Assembly: GCA_012401045.1 (NCBI GenBank)
Contig: GCA_012401045.1_4704.1
Source of the DNA: a phage
DNA length: 64,000 bases
Direction: 5' to 3' (one strand)
In this document: positions 35,996 to 51,094 of the stretch, in pieces
Layout: every line of letters begins with the position of its first letter
How positions within the stretch are numbered: position 1 is the stretch's first letter
The notes under the pieces: generated by a model
What the model saw: only the letters and a program-made list of their open reading frames with translations
Database searches by the model: none
What the model was told of the DNA's origin: nothing
Translations under genes and position numbers: made by a program

Positions 35996-38900
35996 TTATT
36001 TAGCGTCGTTAAAGTAAATATCAACAGCTCGTTCCGTTGCGTAGAGGAGACCAAGATTCACAGTCCCAACCACTTCCGGTGAACCGATGATACGGTTAGC
36101 GATACTGGTGCCACTGAAGATAGCATCAAGGGTGTGCCCGTCTTCGGTTTTGTTCACACCATGACCCACGGAAGAGACAACGGATTTCGCTTGAGCTGCG
36201 AAGGTACCTTTATCGCCCATCCCCGCACCAAGGTCGTAACGCATGAAAATACGGATTGCGATCTGGTTCTCGCCTAACGGATTACCGTCTATTCTCACGT
36301 TACTGTTATTGATACGCCCCGTAGCTGCTTCGTTGAGTTTCAGTTCCTTAACGCGTTTAGCTCGCGCTTTATCTGCATCACCGACGAGCGCCGCCATGGT
36401 TTCACTCATATCCTCAATCTGAGCGCGGTACAACACATCGATCTGTACAACTTCACCATGAACGTCAGCACGTGGGTTATACTGACTCATACGACGTAAT
36501 GCTTCAACGGCTTCCTGACTCTCATCACTCAGATCGGTCGCAATCGGTTCTTCCAGTGTTGCAAGGATCGTTCGTGGTTCAACATGATCGCCGATTTTCA
36601 CGAGACCACGAATGTTGAGATGGGCGTCAACGATGAGCGTACGGCTCTTAATCGATGGTGTTACGAGACGATCGGCAAGATTGTCGAAGATATACGAACT
36701 GTCCTCGTGAGTCTCTGGAATATCCAGAATACCGACAAGAGACAGAACACCTGCGCGCCAAACAACCTGACCTGGGTTCCACCAATCGCGTTTAAAATAA
36801 AGACGATGGAAGACCACCACATCCTGATCCTTAACGCGATCCCCGACTTTATAATCGGTAATAAGATCGTGAGGATAATACTTACCTGGTCCTTTCCCGA
36901 TTATCGTGCCGAGTTGGAAAACCTCTTCTCCTAACTCTGGATCGTCGTATTGTATCGTAAGCGCAGTTTTGGTGACCTTCTTAACAACACCATCGCCTTG
37001 GGCAGCTGCTGCGAAGAGCTTACCAACACGATGCGCGATAACGGTCTCACCGCCGGTGCGCCACGGTTGTACATCGTAACCCTCAGCGGCAATCATGCGG
37101 TTGTGTTGGATCCCGACGAAGACCAGACGTTTTCCATCATCACGGTCTACGGCTGGAACAGCTAACGCCGACGTACTCATTACCGATGAGATACCGTCTG
37201 TCTTTTCATCGAATGGTCGTGTTTCACCATACACCGACACGATATTAGCATTAGGTGCAAGGTAAGCTGAGATACCCACATCCCCACTATCTTTCGTACC
37301 CTCTGACACAATACCAACATCGGACTTGTCGTATTCACGATCACGTGCGCGTCGAAGCGATGTCTTTGAACGACCCCCGATACCGGTCATCGTTGCTTCT
37401 TCACCCTGCTTGATATCCAGCATCGGGTTGGTTTCATCGATCACGATGGACGCGCTGTCGTCGAGAATTTGGTTCCAGACGCTTACCGGACTGATTGAGA
37501 TTTTCTGGCGATTTCCTTGACTGCTGTTCTCATTCTGACGAATAGCGCCAACCAGATCCTTATACACCAATTCAGCGAACTTATCGTACGTTTTAAAACG
37601 TTGGTAGTTCACATCGTTGGTGTTAGGTGCCCAGTCATCCAGAAGCAGTTCAACAGCACGCAGTAACAACATGGCGAAATCGGTAGGTTCTCCCATGTTC
37701 TGTAGCAACGTACGGCTTACCGGATCAACGAAAAGACGCTCCATGAGTTCAAGTTCGCGTAAATGGCGAACCTTAAGTCCAGCACCATCAACAACGTTAA
37801 AATAGATATCTCGATTGTCGAAAGCACCGCGAGCGTAACCGATGTAGTTACGGTATTCGTTAAACCCACCCAGCAACAACGTCGTCATGCGATCGTCTTT
37901 ACTGAAGATCAAACTTTCGTCATCAAAGCTCACCGCGAATTCATCGGGTGCTAATCCCATACGAGAACCGCGAGGTACCGTACGATAGTTCGCTTTAAGA
38001 TGTTCTAATAACGGGGTAAGTCCACCCAGATAACTTAGAACGACACCAACCGGAATACGTACACCCATGAATTCAAGATCGGCGGCTTCGATCGGCATCT
38101 TAGCCGCATTGATACCGAAGAAATCAGGGAACGTCCCTACAGGTGTTGGTGTTTGTCCTGACTGACAGATATAGAGCTGATTGCGTTTATCGATTGCTAA
38201 GAATTCACCCAGCGTGTTACGCGCAAACGTCAGGAGCCCTTCGGCTAACTGTTCGTTGAACCGATCTTCCCCGATGAACTCCGGCAATGTCTTTGTATCG
38301 AGACGTATATCCCAATCAGCAAATTGGATTTGGGTATAGTTGCGTGCAAGCACAGCGAAGTAATACGGGACTTTGACGGCCGGATCAAAGACGTTACCAC
38401 GTTTTAACGTGGTTAAGGGTGAGGACTTATCGTAATACATCGCTGTAAGTTGGCGTGTTAACCAACGACCGGCGTTATTAACGACACGCTCTGAACGTTT
38501 AACAAACACCTTACCGTAGGCGGTACTCAACGCAACTTCGGATGATGATACCTTTCTAATAGGTTTATCAACACGTTGTTTACGCATCCGGTATTTGATG
38601 CCGTTAACGACATAAATGCCGTCCTTACGAACCTTCGGCAACATCACCGGGAACGTGGTTGGGACACCGCCTACAGGGGCCAGTTTAATCGTGATAACTT
38701 GATAATCCCCCATCACGTCAACAACATCTTCAACTTTATATCCCGTGACAGGGTAACCTGCCTGTTGTACGGCAACAACAGCGGCTGCGATGTCCTTTTG
38801 CATCACGTGTTCAACGTAATGTTTATCCCACACCGCAAGCGTCGATTTACATAGGCTCTTATCGACGATAACATCCGCTTCCGGCATAACCTTTGCTGGC

Positions 38901-40342
38901 GCTAATTTCGCGGCTTTTGGTTTAACTTCAACATACTCAGCAAGTGTTAATCCAGAACCGTCGGGTGCTTCGATTTCATGGATGGCGTCGGCATTACGCA
39001 TCGCTGCTTTATATTGGACACCGCTTAACTGACCCGCATCCGCCAGATCGCTCGCGCGCACCAACACCGCATCCGATAACGACTGAATATATTCACCGTG
39101 TGTTTTTGGTAACGTTGCCGCGTCAAAGACATCAACCTTTTCTTCTTCGGTATCGTCGGTAACGACCTCGAAGAGATCGTCGGTAATGTCCTGATCTTCA
39201 TCGGGTTGGAAATCCGGCTGTACTTCTACCCCGGGTACTTCACGGACATCTTCGAACGAGCGTTCTACAATGGCGTTCCACGCATCAGCGTCATCGTCTT
39301 CATCCGACCCACCAACCAACTCCGCTTCTAACTCATCGGGATCAAGAACAGTGGCCAGATCCTCACCGTTAGGAAGCACGACGTCGCGATCATCGTACTC
39401 TGCATCCGGGCTGTCCGCAAGAATATCTCGCTCTTGACGAAGAACCTGTTCCTCTTCTTGTTTCTGTTCTTCTTCATTCGCGCTCTGCGACCATAGACGT
39501 GTTACCGCCATCATCCAACGACGCTGGAAGGTTTCGAGTGTCGTTTTATCGAGTTCTTCCCCTTCCTTTACAAGCCCGGTACGCCATTCTTCCAACAGGC
39601 CGAGATTCAGCGTAAAGAAGTACACGCCGTCTGTAAATACAACGTTAAGCTTATCCAGCGTGGCTCTGTCTAACGAAGCCATCGTGCTGTTCTCACGATC
39701 GGTTCCCAGCCAGCGGAAGAAGTCAAAGAACGACAGCTCCTCCGGCGTAGCGAAATTCATGAGGTTGTTACGGGTCGGTGCCTGTTGCGTGGTACGCATC
39801 AACGAAATCTTCGGCAATGTTGACGGTATACGGAACAACAGAAAGTGTTGGCGATCGCTTTGCTGCGCGATTTCGTTGGCTTTCGACCAAATTGTTTTAC
39901 GTACGTTGAACCATTCATCATACCAACGGGTGAGCGTTGGACGATAGATGTACATGTGGTTAAGATGTGCGTAGTTAGCAACGATCTGAGCGTTGATGTT
40001 TTTCTCCACCGTACTTAGATCGGTAACCAAACGAAAACGACGATGTGACGCACGATAATCCAATTTCGCTCGTGGGAGCTGGAATCGCTGATCACGTCGA
40101 GGTGCACCCTGTTTGGTTGCGAGATCATCAGCAAACGAAATCCATAGTTGAGCACTTTCTTTACTCAACATGTATTCGTTTTCTGGAGGACCTATCAATG
40201 AAGGATCCGTTGCGGTGTAATGATAGACAGCATAACGTGGCAGCTGCAATAGCTGCACTAAACGTAATCTCGGTGACAATAGCTCTTGGTAGCGTCTGAC
40301 GCCAAACTGTCGGTAGTAATCAAGGTATTTAAGTTTTGCCAT
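35996..40342 (-). CDS. Multisubunit RNAP beta-subunit fragment (large N-terminal/major part), probably of the virion RNAP
   Basis: 1448 aa. MTGIGGRS...SEGTKDSGDVGISAYLAPNANI resembles beta ALGPGGL...ETPEGPNIGLI. GIQHNRMIAA resembles NMQRQA. MGDKGTFAAQAKSVVSSV...EDGHTLDAIF resembles GDKxAGRHGNKGVxS...EDGTPVDIVLNP (GDKG at 36217..36206). The protein ends before a GEMEVWA-type region. Confidence 0.8.
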   Translation of the reverse strand: MAKLKYLDYYRQFGVRRYQELLSPRLRLVQLLQLPRYAVYHYTATDPSLIGPPENEYMLSKESAQLWISFADDLATKQGAPRRDQRFQLPRAKLDYRASHRRFRLVTDLSTVEKNINAQIVANYAHLNHMYIYRPTLTRWYDEWFNVRKTIWSKANEIAQQSDRQHFLLFRIPSTLPKISLMRTTQQAPTRNNLMNFATPEELSFFDFFRWLGTDRENSTMASLDRATLDKLNVVFTDGVYFFTLNLGLLEEWRTGLVKEGEELDKTTLETFQRRWMMAVTRLWSQSANEEEQKQEEEQVLRQERDILADSPDAEYDDRDVVLPNGEDLATVLDPDELEAELVGGSDEDDDADAWNAIVERSFEDVREVPGVEVQPDFQPDEDQDITDDLFEVVTDDTEEEKVDVFDAATLPKTHGEYIQSLSDAVLVRASDLADAGQLSGVQYKAAMRNADAIHEIEAPDGSGLTLAEYVEVKPKAAKLAPAKVMPEADVIVDKSLCKSTLAVWDKHYVEHVMQKDIAAAVVAVQQAGYPVTGYKVEDVVDVMGDYQVITIKLAPVGGVPTTFPVMLPKVRKDGIYVVNGIKYRMRKQRVDKPIRKVSSSEVALSTAYGKVFVKRSERVVNNAGRWLTRQLTAMYYDKSSPLTTLKRGNVFDPAVKVPYYFAVLARNYTQIQFADWDIRLDTKTLPEFIGEDRFNEQLAEGLLTFARNTLGEFLAIDKRNQLYICQSGQTPTPVGTFPDFFGINAAKMPIEAADLEFMGVRIPVGVVLSYLGGLTPLLEHLKANYRTVPRGSRMGLAPDEFAVSFDDESLIFSKDDRMTTLLLGGFNEYRNYIGYARGAFDNRDIYFNVVDGAGLKVRHLRELELMERLFVDPVSRTLLQNMGEPTDFAMLLLRAVELLLDDWAPNTNDVNYQRFKTYDKFAELVYKDLVGAIRQNENSSQGNRQKISISPVSVWNQILDDSASIVIDETNPMLDIKQGEEATMTGIGGRSKTSLRRARDREYDKSDVGIVSEGTKDSGDVGISAYLAPNANIVSVYGETRPFDEKTDGISSVMSTSALAVPAVDRDDGKRLVFVGIQHNRMIAAEGYDVQPWRTGGETVIAHRVGKLFAAAAQGDGVVKKVTKTALTIQYDDPELGEEVFQLGTIIGKGPGKYYPHDLITDYKVGDRVKDQDVVVFHRLYFKRDWWNPGQVVWRAGVLSLVGILDIPETHEDSSYIFDNLADRLVTPSIKSRTLIVDAHLNIRGLVKIGDHVEPRTILATLEEPIATDLSDESQEAVEALRRMSQYNPRADVHGEVVQIDVLYRAQIEDMSETMAALVGDADKARAKRVKELKLNEAATGRINNSNVRIDGNPLGENQIAIRIFMRYDLGAGMGDKGTFAAQAKSVVSSVGHGVNKTEDGHTLDAIFSGTSIANRIIGSPEVVGTVNLGLLYATERAVDIYFNDAK

Positions 40343-40345
40343 GGG

Positions 40346-41992
40346 TTAGGCTCCACGAGGTCCCGTTAAGTTGCGTAATAGGAACGCAACCGTATCGTAA
40401 CCAATATCGATGTTGAATTTATTTTTACCACTTACCCAGAAAGCTCGCTTCTTGTGCGAGTTGGTAATTTCGTCAATAGCTTCCATGGAATAAAGAACGT
40501 TAACCGAGACCGTATCACCATCAAAGTCCCCACCAAGTCCGGCGAGGTATGGCGCAGGGACAATAGTCGTTTCTACGAACGAAGCATTAGGTAACCAGTC
40601 GGGGTATTCCCATGCGATAAATCGTTCATCCGTTATTGGTTCCCAGTTACTATCCAGTTCGGTTTTCGGTTTTGCGGCGACGGTTGTACGTGCGTAACAG
40701 GTTAACGGGATAACGGATTGCATACCTGATACCGGATAACGTGTTACCATCGCAGCCAGGTTATTCCAGTACTTATATCCGGCAATATAGATAAGCTCGG
40801 TGTAAGTAATGGGGTGAACATCCGCGCCAGGTTTATTCAACATCTCCGGGGGTAATTCACTCATGCCACGGAATAACCGAAACGAATCGTTGTTCACATA
40901 GACGAGGCAAAGATATCGTCCATTGACCATGATAGGCTCGTTACGCACGCCAGGATCGCTTAAGGTGTTCAGTAAACGTTCTATTCCGTCCCATGTTGTA
41001 AAGTCATCGATGGTGTCTGGATCAAGCGTGACGCGCTCACGTTCCATCGTTTCGGTATCAGTAAGTTCAACTTCTGTAACATCACGGACAAATATTTCCT
41101 GCAAAATACCGGTACGTAACGCATGTTGCGTTACTGGGAGAGCGGCTTTACTCATCTGGTATAACCCTAACTGAACCGCGGTACAGGAAGGCTGGTTAGG
41201 CGACCCTAATACCTCCGTTGTGGGGTTAATTGCCGAAATAACGTTACGGGTTGAGTTCCAAACGCGACGTGAACCAAACTTACCTTGGAAGATCCCTTTC
41301 TTACCCTGGAACATATCCAACAGTAAAGCGTAGATATCGTTGAATGTTCTCTGTAAGCTCCAGCGCTGGCCGTCGTAAACGGGATCGGAATAATCTTTTA
41401 ATCCATCAGGGACGGTGTTAGAAATTGCAAGGAAACGACGATACAACTCCGTGATTTCTTGCTCGCTTTCATACCCACCTTCTTTTACTTCTATTTCACG
41501 TAAGCCTGCAGGCAATACCAGTAAGTGACGGGTCATCGCTTTGAACATGTTCTCTTCGACAACTTTAATTCGTAGCTCTCGTTGAGCTGAACCCGTTGAA
41601 ACGAACTTGATATCCGCGACGTGTTGTGCAAAGAACCCGTATCCTGTTTGTCCTGTTAATGCATCAGACGCAACGAAGTCGCGTTGTTCGGGATCCCACC
41701 GAGCGTACGCCTTCCCCGACATGATATCGCCATAGAGGTGTTTTAATCGAATGAGACGGTCGTAAATGACAGGATGCAGGATTTCAACCTTGCATTCAAT
41801 CACCGCAAATCGACGGTCTCGATCTTCACTACCCGCACTACCAAAGATGGTGTAAGAATAGAAACCATCATCGTGGAAATTACCGGTGCTTGGGTCACGA
41901 ATGCTCATGCTCGTGATCTTGGGGAGAAAACGTAACTGCTGTTTATCGAGGTGTAAAATACTAATATTAAACGGCTCTCTGACTTTAGCCAT
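40346..41992 (-). CDS. Multisubunit RNAP beta' N-terminal fragment (contains the catalytic DFDGD loop)
   Basis: LAGLGGDFDGDTVSVNVL has DFDGD at 40528..40514, 55 aa before the stop. The start is chosen at MAKVREPF (ATG 41992, with AAGAGGAG upstream) rather than the track start at 42034. Confidence 0.8.
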   Translation of the reverse strand: MAKVREPFNISILHLDKQQLRFLPKITSMSIRDPSTGNFHDDGFYSYTIFGSAGSEDRDRRFAVIECKVEILHPVIYDRLIRLKHLYGDIMSGKAYARWDPEQRDFVASDALTGQTGYGFFAQHVADIKFVSTGSAQRELRIKVVEENMFKAMTRHLLVLPAGLREIEVKEGGYESEQEITELYRRFLAISNTVPDGLKDYSDPVYDGQRWSLQRTFNDIYALLLDMFQGKKGIFQGKFGSRRVWNSTRNVISAINPTTEVLGSPNQPSCTAVQLGLYQMSKAALPVTQHALRTGILQEIFVRDVTEVELTDTETMERERVTLDPDTIDDFTTWDGIERLLNTLSDPGVRNEPIMVNGRYLCLVYVNNDSFRLFRGMSELPPEMLNKPGADVHPITYTELIYIAGYKYWNNLAAMVTRYPVSGMQSVIPLTCYARTTVAAKPKTELDSNWEPITDERFIAWEYPDWLPNASFVETTIVPAPYLAGLGGDFDGDTVSVNVLYSMEAIDEITNSHKKRAFWVSGKNKFNIDIGYDTVAFLLRNLTGPRGA

Positions 41993-42237
41993 GGAGACAC
42001 TCCTCTTTACCACCACCGGCTGCGGCGGTATCATCTGAACACACGAGAGACGTAATGGGTGATGGCGTCACCCATCGCTTCCTTGCTTGAGGCGAGGAAG
42101 TTATTAGGTTACGTACCTGCCTGATTTTATCAGGTGGGCGATGTGTGAAGTTACGCTTCAACATTATCAATGCCGAAGGTAAACTTCGTGCATCACGTTC
42201 CAACGTAACATGGGAACGTATCGAACTGGAGGTATAC

Positions 42238-45200
42238 ATGGTAGATAAAACCCGTGTTGAGGGTGATGATAATTGGGACAACTGGGATGAAGACTTCTCC
42301 CTGGATCTCGATTTTAACGAACCCAAAGACGATCGTAAACCGATAACACGCTTTGCGATAGGAGCGGTTAAAGGTGCTGCTGAGGATCTTACTTCCTACG
42401 AAAGAATGAAGGAGATCGCCAGAAACGCATTGCCTAAGGGCTACAGCGACGGTATGGATCTTATTGATTCCGCCGTCGGATCCACGAAGGAACTATACAA
42501 TGAAGCCGTTCGTGACGTTCTTCCTAAGGTCCAAAGCTCAAAACGGTTAGCCGCACAACTGACCAAGAAATACCGTGCGAGCATGCCCGATTTCTCGAAG
42601 AAAATTCTTGAGCAATGGGAGCGAGAAGCCAAGGAAGAAGACGAACGTAAACAAGCTGAAGAAACCCTTCGTCAACGCATGGCGAGCGCGGGGGACGATG
42701 AGATCGCCCGCAAGGTTGCCGAGGCATTAGGCGAATCAGCAAACCAAAGCGCGGATCAGTTCGCTGAACAGCAAGCGAAAGAGAGTATCCGTGACGATAT
42801 CGCTGACAAACGGTACGCTGTAACCAACAAACAAATGAGTGCGATGCAAGAAGGCGTCGCCAAGATGGTTGGTTTCAACAATGAATTCGCTGCACGCTAC
42901 ATGCGTAAAAGCCTGGAACTGAAATATCGTTCCTTAGCGATTCAACGTGCAAGTTTTGATCAGCATAAAAAGTTAGCCGAAGTCTATATCGGTTTATTAC
43001 AAAACATCCAGAAGAATACGGCTTTACCTGATGCGGCTAAAGCAAAAATGTCGGAAGAATTCCGCCGTAGCGCGTACCAACGTTTCTTTGGTAATGCGTT
43101 AGATGCGATGAGTTCTTTCGAGAACCGTTTCTTTGCCGATGTTAAGAAAAACCTTGCCACCAACGCATTAGGTGCTTTAAAAGGCGTCGTGTCTGGCGCA
43201 AACGATGCGTTATACGGTTTAAACGAAGCACGTGACTCGATATCCATGATGGATGGGATGGGGTCAGATGGCGATATTAAGGAAATGCAAGGAAAGATGT
43301 TGGGTCAGTTCATTGGCTCAACTGTCGCACCATGGATGGCTAATAAAGGCAGGATGGCGTTACGCGATTTAGCAAAACGTCACCCCAATGCTAAATTCGC
43401 TAGCGCGTTAAAAGCCGTGGATCAAGGTGGTGAGGCTGCCGCTTACACAACGCGTAATCTCGGTAAACTGCTCCAGGAAGATATTCGTAAGAACGAATTC
43501 AATCTTAGCGATCCGTTTTACAAGCAATTGTTACGCGGTGCAGGGCGTTGGGCGTTCAACATGGACAGCGGACGTAACTTCCGCGTGATGAACGACACCG
43601 CTGAAACACTGGCAGAGCAAACATCTTTCGACGGTTTAACCTACCGCAGCATCAACGAGGTTATTCCAGGCTTTCTTGCACGCATTCTGAAAAGCAGTGA
43701 AGGCATCCGCACCGGAAACAGCGATCCTGACTACGAGGTCTATGACGGCATCAGCGGGCAATTCGTGTCTCAGCGCACGCGTGAGCAAAGCGTCAACGAC
43801 ACGCTGTTTAACAAACGTTCATTTGGTTATTACGCCAGCCGTTTCAACGAGGTTATCTCGGTCATCGATCCCGATAAGCAATTATCGGAAAAAGCCAGGA
43901 AGGCACTGGCTAAACAGTTGGCACGAGATAGCGACGCGAACATCGCATTCGACCCGGCTCGTTTTACGGATGAAAGCAACTTCGATCGTAGTATCGACCG
44001 TGACGCTATTAAGGAACTTTCCACGTACTTTCGTGACCGTTACGGTATTCGTGACGATATCAACGATAAGGGGGAACGTCATCAGGTCATTGGAAACCGC
44101 GGGCAATATTACACGGAACGTAACCGAGCCGATCTTCGTTACGGTAATCTGAAATCTTTACAACCGGATATCCAGCGTAACCTTAACCTGCTGAAACGTA
44201 CTGGTGACGTCCAATATCTGGAACGGATCGGGATTGTAACGAGAAATAGCGACGGAAGTTACTCGGTTAATCACGATAGGTATTTCTCTGAAATCGATCG
44301 GTACATCGACCGGCCGGAGTACGCTGACCGCGGCGATGTTAATACGCGATTAACCGCTCAGGAAACAAGAGCGCTGGCGCTGGGTTATCGTGACGCAAAA
44401 CCATCAGCTGGTGACGTCCAAAATGTCGGCCTGCCGAACATCGGTCGTAAGGCTGCTGGAACAGTAACCGTTGATGAAAACATCGGCTACGATAAATGGT
44501 GGAACGACACAGGTGTTATCACCACATCGCTTGAAGAACAGAATCGAGCGTGGCAAGAGCTTTATCTCGAGGCGTTGTCCGAAGCATCCGAACAACGTGT
44601 TGAAATGCTTGCGCTGCTGAAAGCCATTTCTGAGAAAGACTGGTCTAATAACGTTTCGCTGGATGGTGAAGATGTACCTGAAGGTACAGCACCCATTTCA
44701 TTTATCGATCGTGCCAAACAAAAACTCGGCGGACGCAACCTGTTTAAAGGCGGCCGCAATCTCCTCTGGAAAGGAATTAAAAATACCGCACGTTTAGGTG
44801 TTAAAGGCGCACGCTGGGGTGCAGAACGCACGTTGGGTAGTTTGGTAAATTCTGGCCGACGCATTATCAATTTCAACCGCTTCGTGTTCGGCGCATTATC
44901 CAAGGTTGATCAGGTTCCGTTTGACATTTACGTTAAAGGGGAATCCCAACCACGCATATTGGTTGCTAAACTTCGTCAGGGGTTATACTTCGATGAAGCG
45001 ACAGGAAAAGCCGTAAAACGGATGAAGGATATCAAAGGCCCACTCGTTGATGCGGATGGAAACATCGTAATCAGCAACGAGGATATCGAGAAAGGGTTGG
45101 TCACTCGCGCTGGTCGTGCCTTTGAGAATTCAGGACTTAAAGCATGGGCACGTGAAGGTCTTAATGGAATAACGACGGCATTAAGTCTCCCACGGATGTT

Positions 45201-48200
45201 AAAACGCGGTGCGGTTGAGATCTACAAACAGCTTGACAAAACACCCGACGTTTACGTCAAGGGAGAATCAACGCCTCGTCTGTTGTCCATGGTGTTAGCA
45301 GCGGGTGGGTATTTCCGTCGCTCGGATGGACAAGTCATCAAAAATCTTGAAGACATCGATGGTGATGTTGTTGATGCACAAGGTAACGTCGTACTTACGC
45401 TTGCCGACATGCAGAAAGGACTTGTCGATAAATACGGTAAAGCGATTCGTCGTTTAAAAGAAAAGCTCATCAACTTCGGTGTAAAAGCTTTTACGTTACC
45501 GTTAACGTTGCTACGTAAGACAAAGGACATCCTTAAAGCCCTTCCAGGTAAAACCGTTAACGGTCTACGGCGGATGGGATTAAATTTCCAATCACCTGAC
45601 GCGTTACTGGTGGGAACAACGTCGAGCATGGTAGATCGCCTCGATGCTATTTACCAGCTTCTTGACCAGCGTATGCCGGGAGGTGATAAGGATTACCGCG
45701 ATTGGAATGGCGATGGTGTTCGAGAAGGATCGTTGGAAGACCTGAAACGTAAGCGTGAAGCCAAGGAAAACGGTAAGGATGACATCGGCAAAGATTCCAA
45801 TAAAGGAGAAGAAAAGGAGAAGAAACGAGGGTTACTCGGAAGCCTTTTCGATATGCTCGGTGATACCGCAATAGGTAAACGTCTCATGGCGAGTCCGCTT
45901 GGAAAAATTCTGGGTGGTCTTGGGGCGGTGTTAAGCGGCGGTGCGTCGTTAACTGGGTTGTTGGGCAAAGGTCTCATTAGAGGAACCGGCGCGCTGGTCA
46001 AGGGAGGACTAAGTGCGGCAGGATGGTTAGGACGTGGTGCGTTAATGGCGGGTGGGGCCGCGTTGAACGCCGTTGGTGGGTTATCGGGATTAGGTGCATT
46101 CCTCATCTCACCTGTTGGGCTTGCTATCGCTGGCGGTGCGTTGGCTGCTTATGCTGGATGGAAGATCTATCAGCATTTCGCCGAGAAGCCTGACCCGATG
46201 CAGAAGCTCCGTCTTATTGCATACGGTGCAAAAGGGGACGATAAAGACTTCAATAAGAAGCTGCTTGCGACAGAAACATACCTCACCGACCATGTGGTTA
46301 TGACCGGGGATACCATCGGATTCGATCCGAAAGCCGACTCGGAAAAGATTCTCGAAATCTGGGAATTGTCTCTGGAAGATTCCGACCGAATGAACGAATG
46401 GAAACGCTGGTATCTGCATCGTTTTATTCCTGTTTTCGCTCGCGCGTACAAACTCTGGAAAGAGCATATGCCGGACGAGAAGAAATACATGGAAATGGAT
46501 AAATATCCGAACGGTGAGAACAAAGTGAAATGGTCGGAAGCGTTTATCTGGCCTTCCGATAGTCCTGATGGTCCGTATTACGTCGAAGCTAACCCGTTGG
46601 GTTCTTCTGGTGCGACGCGTTATATTGCTGGTCAAGACGTCAAAACCTTGATGCTGAAACAACTCGAAGCCATCAAGAAAGAGTACCAGAATCAGATTAA
46701 GCAATACACTCATGATGAGGCTATTGCTGATTGGTCACGGATGTCTGACACACAACGTAAATCCGTTGCGCCTAACGCATTACGTGGTCAGAAAGCGTCA
46801 TTACGTTTTAACGATAAACGTTACAACAGCGCTGGTGCTAAAGGACGACAGAAACTGGATGCAACCGCGGTTATTGAAAGCGTAGACCGCCGTGGTAGGA
46901 AATGGGTTGCCGGTGGATACATCGATGAACTCACCAGTCTTCGTGTTCGTGCGTACGGTATTAAGGTTCCGTTGTTAAGTCAGATAAAAGTGCTGATGGA
47001 ACTTGAAGACGCTGTAGAACCTGGCGTTGTCGCTGAAGGTAAAGGTGTTAAATACGGTGGCGATCTTGTCGCGCTCTACAAGAAATTCGCGACGAAGTTC
47101 GGAAGAGACGTTAACAGCAAGCATGATCAGGATATCTGGTTTGCTTGGATGAACAACCGTTTCCTGCCCGTCTTTTTAACCTATTACCAACAAGTTAGCG
47201 ACATGGGCGGTCAAGGACTTCTGTCCGACGTGGTACAGAACCTGAAAGACAGCCAACGCTGGGAAATCGGTGAAGCACTTGTCGCAACGCAATACCGTGA
47301 TGAGAAAGGTACACTGCAGCCTGTATGGTCCTGGAATAGTTGTGGTTTCTCCGGTACTGAAGCTAACACCACCAGCAGTTCAACAAAGAGCCAACTCGAT
47401 CTGTTAAAAGAATATGCGGATAAAGAGAAGGTTCGTGAGAAGAACGCGGAAGCATCGCAAGAGGATACCGATAAATTATCGAAGATCCAAGAGCTGATGA
47501 TGAAGCAGGCTGGGTACGAGAAGAAAGACGGTGTCTGGCAGAAGAAATCTCGCATTACCGGCGGGATGAGTAACTCCGAAGCGAATTACAACCCCAATAG
47601 GAATAAGGTCGGTGAAAGCAGCTTTACGGCTTCGGCTACTTCCAATGCGGGATTAGGGTCAACCGGCGATCTTACCGGATTGCCTAACATGGGCTTACAG
47701 AAACCTGCAATGGGACCAGGTCCTGAAGCTGGACGTCGTGCGCTTGTTAAATCCGCTGTAAAACGCGGCATTACCGATCCGATGGAAATGGCGATGTTCC
47801 TTGCGAACATCGAACATGAATCGGGGAACTACACTCACGTACGTGAGGGGAACTATAAGACACCAGAGCGTCTTAAACAGGTCTTCCCTTACAAATTCCG
47901 TGATGTGCAGGATGCCGCACAGACGATCAGCATGGGTCCGGAAGTGGTATTCGAACGTGTGTATGGTAATCGTAAAGATCTCGGAAACACACAGAAAGGA
48001 GACGGGGCGAAGTATTTAGGACGTGGCTTCATTCAGGTTACCGGTAAAGCTAACTACGCTCGTCTGTCCAAGACCTTGAATAAGGATCTTGTCAGCGATC
48101 CGACCTACCTGGAAACGCCGGAAGGTGCAGCGGAAGGTAGTGTCGCATGGTGGCTCAACCGAGGTAACGTATTACGCGATCCCGCAAAACGGGGTGACGT

Positions 48201-48903
48201 ACGCCAAGTTCGTTATCTAGTTAACGGTGGCTATAACGGATTACGTGATGTTGAACAACGTTCTGCATATTGGATTCAGGCAGCTAAGAATGGCACCCTG
48301 AAGAAAATGATGGACGAGTTATCAGGGTCAACATCAGACGATCAAGCTGAAGGACCGACCACTGCCGAACAGGTGAAGAACGAAGCAGCACAAGAGGCAA
48401 ACGGAACACCTGCTGTAAGCAACGATCCGCAAGCCCCAGTATCTTCTACCACCCCTGAAGCTAAACCGTCTGCGGCTGCCGGGACGGCCCCAGCACCTGG
48501 GGAAGCATCACCAACGCCTGGAAGTTTCGAAACAGCAAAAGCCGCGGCAGGACAACCGACATCAACTCCAGCACCTAGCGATTTGCCGTCAAACCCAGGC
48601 GCAAATCGAGGGATATCGGTTCCGAATACACCTGCACAGGTTGCGCAGTCTGCGACACAAACGTCGGCTGCAAGTGAGAACTTCTACGGTAGCGCAGGTG
48701 AAATTCTCCGACAGCAGCTGACCACACAGCAGAACATCGAGAAGAACACCGGTAGAACGAATGAACTTATTTCGGAATTAATCCAAGCCGTTAAGGGTTC
48801 TTCTATCGGTAAGGGTTCTGCAAGTCCTTCTCAACAACAGACGATGTCACTACCTAATCGTCCGCAAGGAATCTCTCCAACACGGACAAGGTACGCACAG
48901 TAG
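42238..48903 (+). CDS. Giant tape-measure-like virion protein with a C-terminal muramidase domain (phiKZ gp181-like by context)
   Basis: ~2221 aa from ATG 42238 (GGAGG 5 nt upstream). The track's GTG start at 42145 lacks an SD. Features are coiled-coil-like regions, an internal 68-aa duplication, a Gly-rich hydrophobic segment, a GH19-type domain and a P/A/T/S-rich tail. Confidence 0.8.
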   Translation: MVDKTRVEGDDNWDNWDEDFSLDLDFNEPKDDRKPITRFAIGAVKGAAEDLTSYERMKEIARNALPKGYSDGMDLIDSAVGSTKELYNEAVRDVLPKVQSSKRLAAQLTKKYRASMPDFSKKILEQWEREAKEEDERKQAEETLRQRMASAGDDEIARKVAEALGESANQSADQFAEQQAKESIRDDIADKRYAVTNKQMSAMQEGVAKMVGFNNEFAARYMRKSLELKYRSLAIQRASFDQHKKLAEVYIGLLQNIQKNTALPDAAKAKMSEEFRRSAYQRFFGNALDAMSSFENRFFADVKKNLATNALGALKGVVSGANDALYGLNEARDSISMMDGMGSDGDIKEMQGKMLGQFIGSTVAPWMANKGRMALRDLAKRHPNAKFASALKAVDQGGEAAAYTTRNLGKLLQEDIRKNEFNLSDPFYKQLLRGAGRWAFNMDSGRNFRVMNDTAETLAEQTSFDGLTYRSINEVIPGFLARILKSSEGIRTGNSDPDYEVYDGISGQFVSQRTREQSVNDTLFNKRSFGYYASRFNEVISVIDPDKQLSEKARKALAKQLARDSDANIAFDPARFTDESNFDRSIDRDAIKELSTYFRDRYGIRDDINDKGERHQVIGNRGQYYTERNRADLRYGNLKSLQPDIQRNLNLLKRTGDVQYLERIGIVTRNSDGSYSVNHDRYFSEIDRYIDRPEYADRGDVNTRLTAQETRALALGYRDAKPSAGDVQNVGLPNIGRKAAGTVTVDENIGYDKWWNDTGVITTSLEEQNRAWQELYLEALSEASEQRVEMLALLKAISEKDWSNNVSLDGEDVPEGTAPISFIDRAKQKLGGRNLFKGGRNLLWKGIKNTARLGVKGARWGAERTLGSLVNSGRRIINFNRFVFGALSKVDQVPFDIYVKGESQPRILVAKLRQGLYFDEATGKAVKRMKDIKGPLVDADGNIVISNEDIEKGLVTRAGRAFENSGLKAWAREGLNGITTALSLPRMLKRGAVEIYKQLDKTPDVYVKGESTPRLLSMVLAAGGYFRRSDGQVIKNLEDIDGDVVDAQGNVVLTLADMQKGLVDKYGKAIRRLKEKLINFGVKAFTLPLTLLRKTKDILKALPGKTVNGLRRMGLNFQSPDALLVGTTSSMVDRLDAIYQLLDQRMPGGDKDYRDWNGDGVREGSLEDLKRKREAKENGKDDIGKDSNKGEEKEKKRGLLGSLFDMLGDTAIGKRLMASPLGKILGGLGAVLSGGASLTGLLGKGLIRGTGALVKGGLSAAGWLGRGALMAGGAALNAVGGLSGLGAFLISPVGLAIAGGALAAYAGWKIYQHFAEKPDPMQKLRLIAYGAKGDDKDFNKKLLATETYLTDHVVMTGDTIGFDPKADSEKILEIWELSLEDSDRMNEWKRWYLHRFIPVFARAYKLWKEHMPDEKKYMEMDKYPNGENKVKWSEAFIWPSDSPDGPYYVEANPLGSSGATRYIAGQDVKTLMLKQLEAIKKEYQNQIKQYTHDEAIADWSRMSDTQRKSVAPNALRGQKASLRFNDKRYNSAGAKGRQKLDATAVIESVDRRGRKWVAGGYIDELTSLRVRAYGIKVPLLSQIKVLMELEDAVEPGVVAEGKGVKYGGDLVALYKKFATKFGRDVNSKHDQDIWFAWMNNRFLPVFLTYYQQVSDMGGQGLLSDVVQNLKDSQRWEIGEALVATQYRDEKGTLQPVWSWNSCGFSGTEANTTSSSTKSQLDLLKEYADKEKVREKNAEASQEDTDKLSKIQELMMKQAGYEKKDGVWQKKSRITGGMSNSEANYNPNRNKVGESSFTASATSNAGLGSTGDLTGLPNMGLQKPAMGPGPEAGRRALVKSAVKRGITDPMEMAMFLANIEHESGNYTHVREGNYKTPERLKQVFPYKFRDVQDAAQTISMGPEVVFERVYGNRKDLGNTQKGDGAKYLGRGFIQVTGKANYARLSKTLNKDLVSDPTYLETPEGAAEGSVAWWLNRGNVLRDPAKRGDVRQVRYLVNGGYNGLRDVEQRSAYWIQAAKNGTLKKMMDELSGSTSDDQAEGPTTAEQVKNEAAQEANGTPAVSNDPQAPVSSTTPEAKPSAAAGTAPAPGEASPTPGSFETAKAAAGQPTSTPAPSDLPSNPGANRGISVPNTPAQVAQSATQTSAASENFYGSAGEILRQQLTTQQNIEKNTGRTNELISELIQAVKGSSIGKGSASPSQQQTMSLPNRPQGISPTRTRYAQ
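44923..45450 (+). repeat. Internal protein-level duplication (two 68-aa units, 108 codons apart)
   Basis: DIYVKGESQPRILV...GPLVDADGNIVISNEDIEKGLVTRAGRA (44923..45126) matches DVYVKGESTPRLLS...GDVVDAQGNVVLTLADMQKGLVDKYGKA (45247..45450). Confidence 0.8.
45828..46172 (+). other. Glycine-zipper-like hydrophobic segment of the giant protein
   Basis: GLLGSLFDMLG...GGLGAVLSGGASLTGLLGKGL...GGAALNAVGGLSGLGAFLISPVGLAIAGGALAAYAGW. Confidence 0.6.
47740..48300 (+). other. GH19 (chitinase-like) lysozyme domain of the giant protein
   Basis: MFLANIEHESGNY (EHESG at 47812..47826) ... LGNTQKGDGAKYLGRGFIQVTGKANY ... AWWLN. Confidence 0.7.
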
Positions 48904-48952: not shown

Positions 48953-51094
48953 ATGGGTATTCTTGTTCAAAACGCCCTAATCACCAAACAAGCGTTTTTA
49001 TTACCAGGCGATAGCAGCACTCTGAGCGCCGACATGATTAAAGCGAGACATACACCGTATTCCTACGATAACGTCGATGATACCACCTTAGGTGGGAACT
49101 GGGTGCTTAACCCGCCGCCGCAATATACAAAATTTGCCGACATCAAAGAACGCCGACGTGCGGTTATGCCGGGATCAACGGGCATGGGTCGAGGCTATAG
49201 TGAAAGCATTAACAGCTTTAAAGAGGTCGTTACATTACGATTCGGTAAACCTCGCTTTACAGGCGCAAGTATCTTCTTTACTGATTTCTACGATGCGGAT
49301 GTTGCCGTAACGGTTAAAACCGGTCGCGATCCCGGTATTCTTTATTACGCAGCCAAAGCGTATACCACCGTTCTTTCTTACCTCACACCTCTACCCTACT
49401 TGTATATGGTTGGACGTATCGGTCGATATTTCCTGGGTAAGCCTACCAGTCAATATTACTATCAAGTACCAACCATGCACGTGTATTGGGCGTCTTTCCA
49501 AACACTGGTAAACCAAACAGCGATAAACATGGGTCTTATCGCCGGTGCCGGTAAAGATAAAGGCTATGTGGAAGAAGGGGGTACCGTACTCCACCAATAT
49601 TCAATCGGTGGTCAGAACGTTGAAGAATTCATCAACTACGCCTCTAAGACGCTACCGGGGATTTATAAGAAAGGTGGTGGGATCGATATCTACCAGATCG
49701 CAACACGACGTCAGCGCATACAGAACGCATGGGTACGTCGTATTCAATCCATGATGGAAAACGATTACTCGTCTTACGAGGAGTTCTGGAACGATCTTGA
49801 TAAACGACTTGATAGCGGAGCATTTCCATCGGATGTAACCGGCCGTACGTTAACGCAGTATCTCGCCGACACGCAGAAGTCTGCTGTTTACAGTGCGACA
49901 GCTGGTGATAATAAACAAACGATGGACGACCTTTTATTCGGAAGGGCCTCATACACCAACAAGGACGCTGATGCCAACTTCAATGTCTCTGCAGTCACCT
50001 CCGACGGCGGTACGTCAACACAAAGTCAGGGTACAACAGCCAATGTCGGTAATTCGACATCAGGGACAACGCAAGCTTCAACAGCAGCATCGACGGCTGG
50101 AGGTGCGAACGTACAGAGCAAAGGAATCGGGCAAACGAACGCAGCCGAAGAAGCTACATTTCTTGATCTGATGGATGCTGAACTGGCTGACGGTGCCCAG
50201 TTTATCAGTTTTCGAGTCGATTCTGTCACCAGTGTAACCGAAACGTTTTCAAACAGCGCTTCAGAAAGTTCTATTGCACAGACGATGAATAGCCGTGCAC
50301 AAGCGAACATCGAACGTCGTTTCACCCTTTCCGGTGGTAATACAGGTTGGGCTGTACTAGACGAAGCAATCAAAGCCGGTTCCGATCTCGTCAACGGTGC
50401 TATTTCCGGGATGGGTCTGGATGGTATTTTTGGGGCCTTCATGGGTTCCGGCTTCGCTGACATTCCGAAATTCTATTCTGGATCGTCAGTAAGTCTACCG
50501 CGCGCCGATCTGACGATGGAATTGCGTTCCTGGAGTGGGGATCGTTGGTCGATCTTTACGAACCTCATGGTGCCTCTTTTAGCTATCCTTGCAGGTGGTT
50601 TACCTCAGGCTACCGGTAAATCGTCCTACGGGATGCCGTTCATGTGTGAATGTTATATCCCTGGTAAAGTCCAGATTAAAATGGGTCTTATCGACAACAT
50701 CACTGTGACGCGTCACGTTGGAAACGTGCCATCAACACGTGAGCGGTTACCGTTGGGTATCGATGTCAGCTTCAGCGTTTATGACCTGTCGTCCATCGTC
50801 GCCATGCCGATCACAACGACGGCCGCATCGATCGCAAAATTGGATCCTCGTGGCTTCTTAAGTGATCTTCTTGCTGACGATACCCCACTCAACAACTATC
50901 TTGCTGTATTATCAGCATTGACGCTTACGGAACAAGTTTACATGATTCCTGATTTAAGTCGTCGCATGCATAAAACCATGGCTGATATCGATAGTTTCTG
51001 GAGCAAAGGTAATTTTGCTAGCTGGTTGTCTGACACCATGCCTGGCAGGATAGCATCAGGGCTGTTATGGAAACGTACAGAACGTCCGTTCTGA
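48953..51094 (+). CDS. Large hypothetical virion-type protein (713 aa)
   Basis: SD GAGGAA. It has an S/T/G/Q-rich low-complexity linker and follows the tape-measure-like gene. Confidence 0.75.
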   Translation: MGILVQNALITKQAFLLPGDSSTLSADMIKARHTPYSYDNVDDTTLGGNWVLNPPPQYTKFADIKERRRAVMPGSTGMGRGYSESINSFKEVVTLRFGKPRFTGASIFFTDFYDADVAVTVKTGRDPGILYYAAKAYTTVLSYLTPLPYLYMVGRIGRYFLGKPTSQYYYQVPTMHVYWASFQTLVNQTAINMGLIAGAGKDKGYVEEGGTVLHQYSIGGQNVEEFINYASKTLPGIYKKGGGIDIYQIATRRQRIQNAWVRRIQSMMENDYSSYEEFWNDLDKRLDSGAFPSDVTGRTLTQYLADTQKSAVYSATAGDNKQTMDDLLFGRASYTNKDADANFNVSAVTSDGGTSTQSQGTTANVGNSTSGTTQASTAASTAGGANVQSKGIGQTNAAEEATFLDLMDAELADGAQFISFRVDSVTSVTETFSNSASESSIAQTMNSRAQANIERRFTLSGGNTGWAVLDEAIKAGSDLVNGAISGMGLDGIFGAFMGSGFADIPKFYSGSSVSLPRADLTMELRSWSGDRWSIFTNLMVPLLAILAGGLPQATGKSSYGMPFMCECYIPGKVQIKMGLIDNITVTRHVGNVPSTRERLPLGIDVSFSVYDLSSIVAMPITTTAASIAKLDPRGFLSDLLADDTPLNNYLAVLSALTLTEQVYMIPDLSRRMHKTMADIDSFWSKGNFASWLSDTMPGRIASGLLWKRTERPF

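Follow-up and report, generated by a model that had tools for sequence, protein, structure and literature searches.

The 64,000-nucleotide (nt) stretch of phage DNA analysed here (contig GCA_012401045.1_4704.1 of assembly GCA_012401045.1; hereafter the window) encodes on its plus strand a giant tail protein of 2,221 amino acids (aa) and 245 kDa (42238..48903, stop codon included). We propose, with a probability of roughly 0.7, that this protein is a low-copy tape-measure/ejection protein of the virion, which is housed in the tail tube with its C-terminal tail (C-tail) at the hub and which acts as a muralytic and membrane-inserting protein at infection. The protein belongs to an already known kind, and what is new is the corrected start codon and a fuller domain map. 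Its family membership, its start codon and its modular layout with an intact GH19 site are shown here; the tape-measure role and the ejection mechanism described below are inferred. All the features listed in the sequence-only reading, an earlier description made without database searches (start, duplication, Gly-rich segment, GH19 domain, linker, tail and leader), were found at or near the places it gave.

The 7-kb region around the gene shares 96.8% nucleotide identity with Escherichia phage vB_EcoM_Goslar over its full length, and the source phage can be classed by its sequence as a Goslar-like chimallivirus. Goslar is a nucleus-forming jumbo phage of the Chimalliviridae. The coding sequence is the ortholog of Goslar gp204 (Goslar_00232 / HOV27_gp204; YP_009820915 / QBO64023), with about 98% amino acid identity. 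The Goslar protein is labelled "putative chitinase" in GenBank and "tail fiber protein" in RefSeq, and both records begin at the GTG equivalent to 42145, giving 2,252 aa; here the start is moved and the function is renamed. PHROG 3201 matched residues 11-1170 of the form starting at ATG 42238 (E = 9.5e-292). BLASTP aligned the protein to gp181 of phage phiKZ (NP_803747) over aa 35-693 and again from aa 887 to at least aa 1600 (E = 5e-45 and 2e-36). A comparison with phiKZ gp181 had been suggested from the sequence, and gp181 is indeed a full-length homolog. When residues 480-1679 were used in an exhaustive HMMER search, the number of representative clusters retrieved was 1,171 at E <= 0.001, of which 610 reached E <= 1e-30. 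Lengths among the top 150 matches were 1,700-3,450 aa throughout. The gp181-type proteins are thus a large, well-populated protein family of jumbo phages.

phiKZ gp181 has 2,237 aa against 2,221 aa here and shows 24-25% identity in its full-length homology. It occupies the same genomic position, with virion RNA polymerase (vRNAP) genes beside it and the gp182/gp203 homolog downstream. Both proteins contain R repeats (three in gp181, two here), a Gly-rich segment and M modules, and the lytic domain of each lies at about residues 1830-2030. However, the lytic domain of gp181 is an SLT domain (PF01464; 1885-1978), whereas that of the window protein is of the GH19 endolysin type. Since the two enzymes lie at the same position, the lytic module has been swapped. 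The Gly-rich part of gp181 also lacks strongly hydrophobic 19-residue windows at the threshold used.

Experiments on these two relatives place the protein in the virion and point to an essential role. Label-free mass spectrometry of Goslar virions detected YP_009820915, listed as "Tail protein", with 34 peptides and 24% coverage, and gave an estimate of about 3.4-8 copies per virion (bioRxiv 10.64898/2026.04.21.720040, Table S4). One tryptic peptide from the virions originates from the equivalent of the P/A/T/S-rich linker that follows the lytic domain (bioRxiv 10.64898/2026.04.21.720040, Table S4). Therefore, the C-terminal part of the protein is present in virions. In phiKZ, transposon sequencing recovered zero insertions in orf181, which classifies the gene as essential, and its product was called a likely tape measure (PMC12676376). 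As far as Briers 2008 is quoted in PMC5380687, the lytic domain of phiKZ gp181 is muralytic.

The gene order is the same as in phiKZ. Upstream, two divergent vRNAP subunit genes occupy 35996-40342 and 40346-41992 on the minus strand, and the genes 3' of the coding sequence are orthologs of Goslar gp203 (48953..51094, plus strand), a tail-tube initiator touching the spike cap and the counterpart of phiKZ gp182, and of gp202, a lower wedge protein. Cryo-electron microscopy of Goslar located gp203 in the tube-initiator layer, in contact with the spike cap, and resolved 46 tube layers (bioRxiv 10.64898/2026.04.21.720040). The hub and spike of Goslar were fully assigned to gp13, gp48, gp203 and gp62, and the hub is closely T4-like (bioRxiv 10.64898/2026.04.21.720040). 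The window gene thus sits beside tube-initiator and hub genes, as a tape-measure gene is expected to do. In T4, the tube-initiator genes 48 and 54 come directly after gene 29, which encodes the tape measure. The gene order here follows the same logic and supports placement of the giant protein as a tape measure. In phiKZ, the tail tube rises by 37.73 Å per layer around a lumen that measures about 68 Å (PMC13250141), with 43 rings. By our volume estimate, a tube lumen with a width of 68 Å and a length of 174 nm would be filled to 14-28% by 3-6 copies. Structure matches in BFVD outside the family were sub-significant; that most of them were tape-measure proteins or minor tail proteins hints weakly in the same direction.

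According to the proposed mechanism, the giant protein would reside in the lumen of the tail tube as a tape-measure/ejection protein, with its conserved C-tail anchored at the baseplate hub, where it would neighbour the tube initiator, the product of the next gene. Contraction of the sheath and shedding of the spike would be followed by its expulsion. Local cutting of peptidoglycan glycan strands would then fall to the GH19 domain, and the Gly-rich hydrophobic helices would insert into the inner membrane and help to open a conduit for DNA and proteins.

Several observations weigh against this proposal. The protein is not modelled in the Goslar atlas, in the main text of which neither gp204 nor the terms "tape measure" and "lumen" were found; likewise, gp181 is neither mentioned in the main text of the 2026 phiKZ atlas (PMC13250141) nor modelled there. 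The sequence-only reading had called the protein tape-measure-like, and the hub-side position of the gene and the phiKZ genetics agree with that description; a tape-measure family did not come with them, as a Pfam search at E <= 1 returned only sub-threshold matches to GH19 and Talin_R4. The GH19 profile PF00182 stayed below its gathering threshold of 25.5 bits, the whole protein scoring 18.2 bits and the isolated domain 22.8 bits. NCBIfam returned nothing for the giant protein, and no PDB chain matched the N-terminal half or the M modules. Much of the predicted structure is globular, with at least six confident domains, and not an extended helix; the N-terminal helices (aa 35-495) and several linkers are helical by prediction, with low AlphaFold confidence (predicted local distance difference test, pLDDT). 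There is no tail-assembly chaperone gene with a frameshift upstream, the neighbour there being the divergent RNA polymerase (RNAP) subunit gene. The orientation, ejection, membrane insertion and muramidase activity of the protein are themselves predictions. Finally, the Gly-rich segment lies at about residues 1224-1327 in phiKZ, with 43 rings, and at 1197-1311 here, with 46 rings in Goslar. To span a 174-nm tube, about 1,157 residues in helical form would be needed, and the part before the membrane segment has 1,196 residues here; in phiKZ, this part is longer although the tube is shorter. Where the membrane segment lies is thus not simply proportional to ring number, and therefore we do not claim a ruler role.

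This lack of proportionality between membrane-segment position and tail length in phiKZ and Goslar would also suit a baseplate-centred lysin, that is, a protein of the cell-puncturing device which lies outside the tube lumen and has no role in tail length, the role originally put forward for phiKZ gp181. Many globular domains would fit such a lysin, large parts of the peripheral baseplate are unmodelled in both phages, and in a review gp181 is entered as "needle-like cell-puncturing device, putative trimer" (PMC5380687). However, all the density of the Goslar hub and inner baseplate is explained, with hub and spike taken up by gp13, gp48, gp203 and gp62. About 3-8 copies and a long N-terminal helical region fit a lumen protein, the gene adjoins that of the tube initiator, and the recent phiKZ study regards the orf181 product as a likely tape measure (PMC12676376). 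We consider a baseplate-centred lysin unlikely and favour a tape-measure/ejection protein in the tube lumen.

The conserved start of the giant protein is most likely ATG 42238. This codon had been proposed as the start on account of a GGAGG with a 5-nt spacer, and the Shine-Dalgarno (SD) sequence is read directly at 42228..42232 (plus strand); it is kept in three related contigs (L003, L004 and L005). The upstream GTG 42145 gives the longest open reading frame (ORF) and was chosen by GenBank, RefSeq and most automatic calls. As the true or an additional start, it would add an extension of 31 residues to the N-terminus, for a total of 2,252 aa. However, these 31 codons (42145..42237, plus strand), which form the GTG-start region of the Goslar annotation in GenBank and RefSeq, are most likely untranslated leader. 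Two orthologs with 47% identity (P0004 and P0005) begin at the aligned Met (MAKDKNKAGGDDDWDSWDDD vs MVDKTRVEGDDNWDNWDED), and in their contigs the ATG stands behind GGAGG, with an in-frame TAA ten codons upstream and no alternative start between. The extension is absent from L003 and L005, where an in-frame TAA is found instead, and in L004, an 88%-identical relative, the stretch from GTG to ATG has lost 63 of its 93 nt. Only L004, L003 and L005 are informative on this point; the 93 nt are identical between Goslar and another close relative, L008, so the ratio of nonsynonymous to synonymous substitutions (dN/dS) gave no information there. The extension is covered by no homolog or profile, and the earliest homolog alignment begins at residue 51 of the GTG form or later (tblastn, 180 phage records). 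Among the neighbouring Goslar genes, 12 of 12 start with ATG and 11 of 12 have an SD-like motif; the annotated GTG has no SD.

The sequence-only reading had stated that GTG 42145 lacks an SD sequence. This holds in Goslar but only in part in the window, where AGGTGG stands 7 nt before the GTG. This SD-like sequence is sequestered in the stem of the third of four leader hairpins (hairpin 3), and the region of the extension folds into conserved RNA hairpins. The deletion in L004, which removes two thirds of the extension, is in frame, and an ATG is present there at the position equivalent to the GTG; this leaves some room for a minor longer isoform. Because of it, some residual doubt attaches to the start, and we regard GTG 42145 as very unlikely to be a true or additional start. 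Among the Goslar virion peptides listed, none came from the extension; the list is alphabetical and cut short, so that this absence carries no weight. The N-terminal peptides of the form starting at ATG 42238 would be (M)VDKTR / VEGDDNWDNWDEDF.

The N-terminal half of the protein begins with an acidic N-terminus and long predicted helices (42238..43722, plus strand). As had been thought plausible for a start at ATG 42238, the N-terminus is rich in Asp (25% of the first 40 aa), with the stretch DDNWDNWDEDF; the helices span aa 35-495 and have low confidence. A globular domain follows (43735..44382, plus strand; aa ~500-715), which is predicted with a pLDDT of 80-92, is the best conserved portion of the N-terminal half and carries the family motif RSI.EVIPGFLARIL...IRTG. 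A Foldseek search of the N-terminal half against PDB gave nothing at E <= 0.001, where whole models were queried and weak domain-level matches could escape, and phmmer found no match for this half in PDB. The domain at aa ~500-715 showed weak similarities (E > 2) to small helical DNA-binding or ribosomal proteins, namely of the MarR family and a small-subunit ribosomal protein.

Two repeat modules follow, R1 (44905..45237, plus strand; aa 890-1000) and its paralog R2 (45232..45561, plus strand; aa 999-1108). Two 68-aa units at 44923-45126 and 45247-45450, 108 codons apart, had been described as sharing about 40% identity. The spacing is correct, and the identity is in fact 47% (32 of 68 residues). 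The Smith-Waterman score of the duplication was 182, compared with a mean of 29.4 (standard deviation 5.3, maximum 56) for shuffled sequences. This duplication is real, and its true unit is about 110 aa. A hidden Markov model (HMM) built from R1 and R2 detected the module in 116 of 121 family proteins, in one to six tandem copies (mode 2) with a median period of 116 aa. In the AlphaFold2 models (pLDDT 76-86), each R copy has a small beta domain, from which a long helix continues. That the R duplication is a family-wide module of variable copy number had been overlooked in the earlier description.

Downstream of the R modules lies a near-invariant family motif, DWNGDGVREGSLEDLKRKR (45700..45756, plus strand; aa 1155-1173), with the consensus GDxxGDGxRxGS and a K/E-rich stretch behind it. 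The motif resembles a calcium-binding loop, and the canonical spacing of EF-hands or dockerins does not fit it.

The Gly/Ala/Leu-rich hydrophobic segment (45826..46170, plus strand; aa 1197-1311) is composed of 26% Gly, 17% Ala and 20% Leu. It had been placed from 45828; the segment was found, and its first codon begins at 45826, the earlier boundary being 2 nt out of frame. Uncharged runs extend over aa 1224-1243 (20 aa) and 1267-1308 (42 aa), and Kyte-Doolittle windows reached 1.4 or more at 1224-1242 and 1272-1307. These runs are candidate membrane-inserting helices. The term glycine zipper, used earlier for this segment, holds at the level of motifs only, with three GxxxG and ten overlapping small-xxx-small-xxx-small patterns within aa 1197-1311. 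The last helix (LISPVGLAIAGGALAAYAGWKIY) fits the family consensus L..PV.LG..A.AA..YGGYK.YK, and a Gly/Ala-rich region follows the last R module in 86 of 86 family cases. AlphaFold confidence is low in this segment, as would be anticipated when a monomer is modelled for a segment that is oligomeric or lies in a membrane. On the minus strand, several long antisense ORFs (125-201 aa; 45252-46713) overlap the stretch that encodes the Gly/Ala-rich part; they probably reflect its composition and are not genes.

In chimalliviruses, the incoming genome is at first surrounded by a lipid vesicle that is believed to originate from the inner membrane of the host, and this vesicle's formation was left unexplained in the study concerned. 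The Gly-rich segment, flanked by the two family-specific M modules, might seize and remodel the inner membrane at the tail tip and so seed this vesicle, a role that would go beyond pore opening. The suggestion arises because the giant protein is the sole low-copy virion tail protein found here with membrane-type segments and because its M modules have no known structural relatives. We regard it as a long shot.

The two M modules represent a second internal duplication, which was absent from the sequence-only reading. M1 (46165..46737, plus strand; aa 1310-1500) was modelled with a pLDDT of 71-94 and its paralog M2 (46915..47547, plus strand; aa 1560-1770) with a pLDDT of 83-97. The duplicated cores, aa 1316-1424 in M1 and aa 1560-1670 in M2, aligned to each other in hhalign with an E-value of 3.6e-25, and phmmer of M1-M2 against PDB found no match. 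Both internal duplications, R and M, appear to be family-wide.

The lytic domain (47695..48327, plus strand; aa ~1820-2030) is of the GH19 endolysin subfamily. A GH19-type lysozyme domain had been recognised at 47740..48300, and this assignment is borne out by the endolysin matches and the full residue set of ELYS, the endolysin group of the GH19 Engineering Database. In a phmmer search of PDB, the GH19 endolysins were matched at 1.7e-23 (9eoi), 1.3e-22 (7r6s), about 1e-20 (PWe1/PWe2) and 5.9e-19 (SPN1S, 4ok7), and GH19 chitinases at about 1e-3 at best. As the PF00182 matches are partial and the similarity to PDB chitinases is far weaker, the low PF00182 scores suggest a model biased towards chitinases. 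The ELYS core comprises H48, E49 (proton donor), S50, E58 (base), Y106 and the ELYS-specific R109, together with G123-R-G125, Q128, T130 (water-coordinating), N134, Y135 and N187-G188 (PMC8547705). The catalytic set here consists of E1861 as proton donor, E1870 as base nine residues later and T1935 as water-coordinating Thr; the two Glu residues lie in an H-E-S...E arrangement and T1935 in the context GRGFIQVTG. The other ELYS residues are H1860, S1862, Y1909, R1912 (= R109), G1928-R-G1930, Q1933, N1939 and Y1940, and an N-G-G at 1996-1998 matches N187-G188. The domain groups with GH19 endolysins and not with chitinases both by sequence and by fold, and its model has the GH19 fold. It is thus a GH19 domain with an apparently intact catalytic set, for which muramidase activity is predicted.

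These results bear on the database names, which would make the protein a tail fibre (RefSeq and PHROG) or a chitinase (GenBank). Apart from the names, the support for them consists of the sub-threshold Pfam match to "Chitinase class I". The lytic domain, however, goes with the endolysins in sequence and fold and contains the endolysin-specific R109, and the host, E. coli, contains no chitin. Fibre-like features such as a beta-helix or trimeric fibre repeats are not predicted; helical regions and small globular domains are predicted instead. A fibre or chitinase function is extremely improbable.

Among the 120 homologs listed, the lytic modules were 64 SLT domains, five GH19 domains above threshold and others of the M23, VanY and CHAP types. 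As the lytic module varies across the family, the enzyme can be regarded as an exchangeable cassette on a conserved scaffold. The lytic domain is followed by a disordered linker (48328..48717, plus strand; aa 2031-2160) and a helical C-tail (48718..48903, plus strand, stop codon included; here ...RPQGISPTRTRYAQ). A P/A/T/S-rich linker and a conserved-looking tail had been expected here. The linker contains 56% P/A/T/S, compared with 25% for the whole protein, and is predicted to be disordered. The C-tail, conserved family-wide, comprises the last ~60 residues, with helices of moderate confidence and the motifs L.QQL.VQ...L..I and then P..P..VSM.R. Since these motifs are kept whatever the lytic domain is, they suggest that the C-tail serves as a structural anchor and not in catalysis.

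A long helical stretch, a hydrophobic segment that inserts into membranes and, at the C-terminus, a cell-wall hydrolase used at infection are combined in tape-measure proteins such as Pb2 of phage T5 and that of mycobacteriophage TM4. Pb2 is listed as a muralytic tail protein (PMC5380687). The giant protein would share the same lumen-protein logic with these two, with no sequence relationship detected (Pfam); unlike them, it is about twice the size, has the additional R, M and N-domain modules and belongs to a contractile-tailed jumbo phage. The T4 tape-measure and hub protein, gp29, has about 590 aa and no lytic domain or comparable modules, the lysozyme of T4 being part of gp5. The likeness to gp29 lies in the contractile-tail phage and in a gene directly followed by tube-initiator genes. 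With the GH19 endolysins (SPN1S, 4ok7; Pseudomonas aeruginosa, 9eoi; PWe2, 9ms7), the protein has in common the fold and the catalytic set, namely the HES motif, Glu-x8-Glu, GRGxxQxTGxxNY and NGG. However, these endolysins are free lysis enzymes, whereas the GH19 domain here is embedded in a 245-kDa virion protein.

The present analysis corrects the start codon and the names "chitinase" and "tail fiber protein", which have been propagated for Goslar-type phages in GenBank, RefSeq and PHROGs. Its domain map (N-domain, two R modules, GDG motif, membrane segment, two M modules, GH19, linker and C-tail) covers a protein that both 2026 atlases left unmodelled, although its phiKZ homolog is essential, and it may guide where structural and genetic studies cut, tag or delete. 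The copy-number variation of the R module offers a direct route to test whether tail length is set by this family, and the GH19 fragment might serve as a muralytic enzyme by itself. In practical terms, the value is modest.

The divergent region upstream of the giant gene had been given as 203 nt long (42035..42237) and as containing several short hairpins. The region is divergent as described. As both annotation and gene calling begin the divergent RNAP gene at ATG 41992, the non-coding gap probably measures 245 nt (41993-42237) instead. The hairpins were recovered in a structured 5' leader (42050..42165, plus strand), at 42057-42073, 42077-42101, 42116-42138 and 42140-42165. The minimum free energy of 42035-42260 was -82.1 kcal/mol, compared with -61.0 ± 4.8 kcal/mol for shuffled sequences (z -4.4; none of the 200 shuffles was as stable), and a three-way comparison of the leader gave 45 predicted pairs. 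In hairpin 3 (42116-42138), the stem is kept through three double-sided changes in L004, and further variants occur in Goslar and L008. Over about 300 nt, this hairpin is the one place where the window, Goslar and L008 differ from each other. It exists in four sequence versions, each with a stem of 9-10 bp, and is a hotspot of pairing-preserving variation. The G-U pairs of hairpin 3 would be A-C mismatches on the other strand; therefore, an RNA structure of the plus strand is favoured, which points to the 5' untranslated region of the giant tail gene.

The divergent intergenic region also contains a 17-nt motif, GGCGGTATCATCTGAAC (42024..42040, no strand assigned), which occurs once in the window and is thus no repeated element. 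It is identical in five related contigs, including two that encode 47%-identical proteins and in which the rest of the intergenic region cannot be aligned. Read on the minus strand, the motif includes an in-frame ATG at 42034 ("MIPP..."); ATG 41992, which has an SD before it, lies 14 codons downstream. The motif may be a promoter or transcription start site element, or an alternative start of the RNAP gene. A scan for sigma-70 promoters gave weak matches only, and the TATG motif of phiKZ late promoters was not found on the plus strand of 42035-42237 when the sequence was read. Therefore, no promoter is proposed.

The RNAP-subunit gene at 40346-41992 (minus strand) differs from its Goslar counterpart. 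About 2.05 kb of Goslar (L001 4477-6527) are missing here, with the junction at ~40519-40527. The Goslar segment contains an annotated group I intron RNA and Goslar_00230, which is similar to phiKZ ORF179 and, as a guess from its position, may be an intron-encoded endonuclease. In the window, the RNAP-subunit gene is uninterrupted, with 548 aa from ATG 41992, and an Rfam scan of the whole window matched zero families. Therefore, this phage carries an intron-less allele of the gene.

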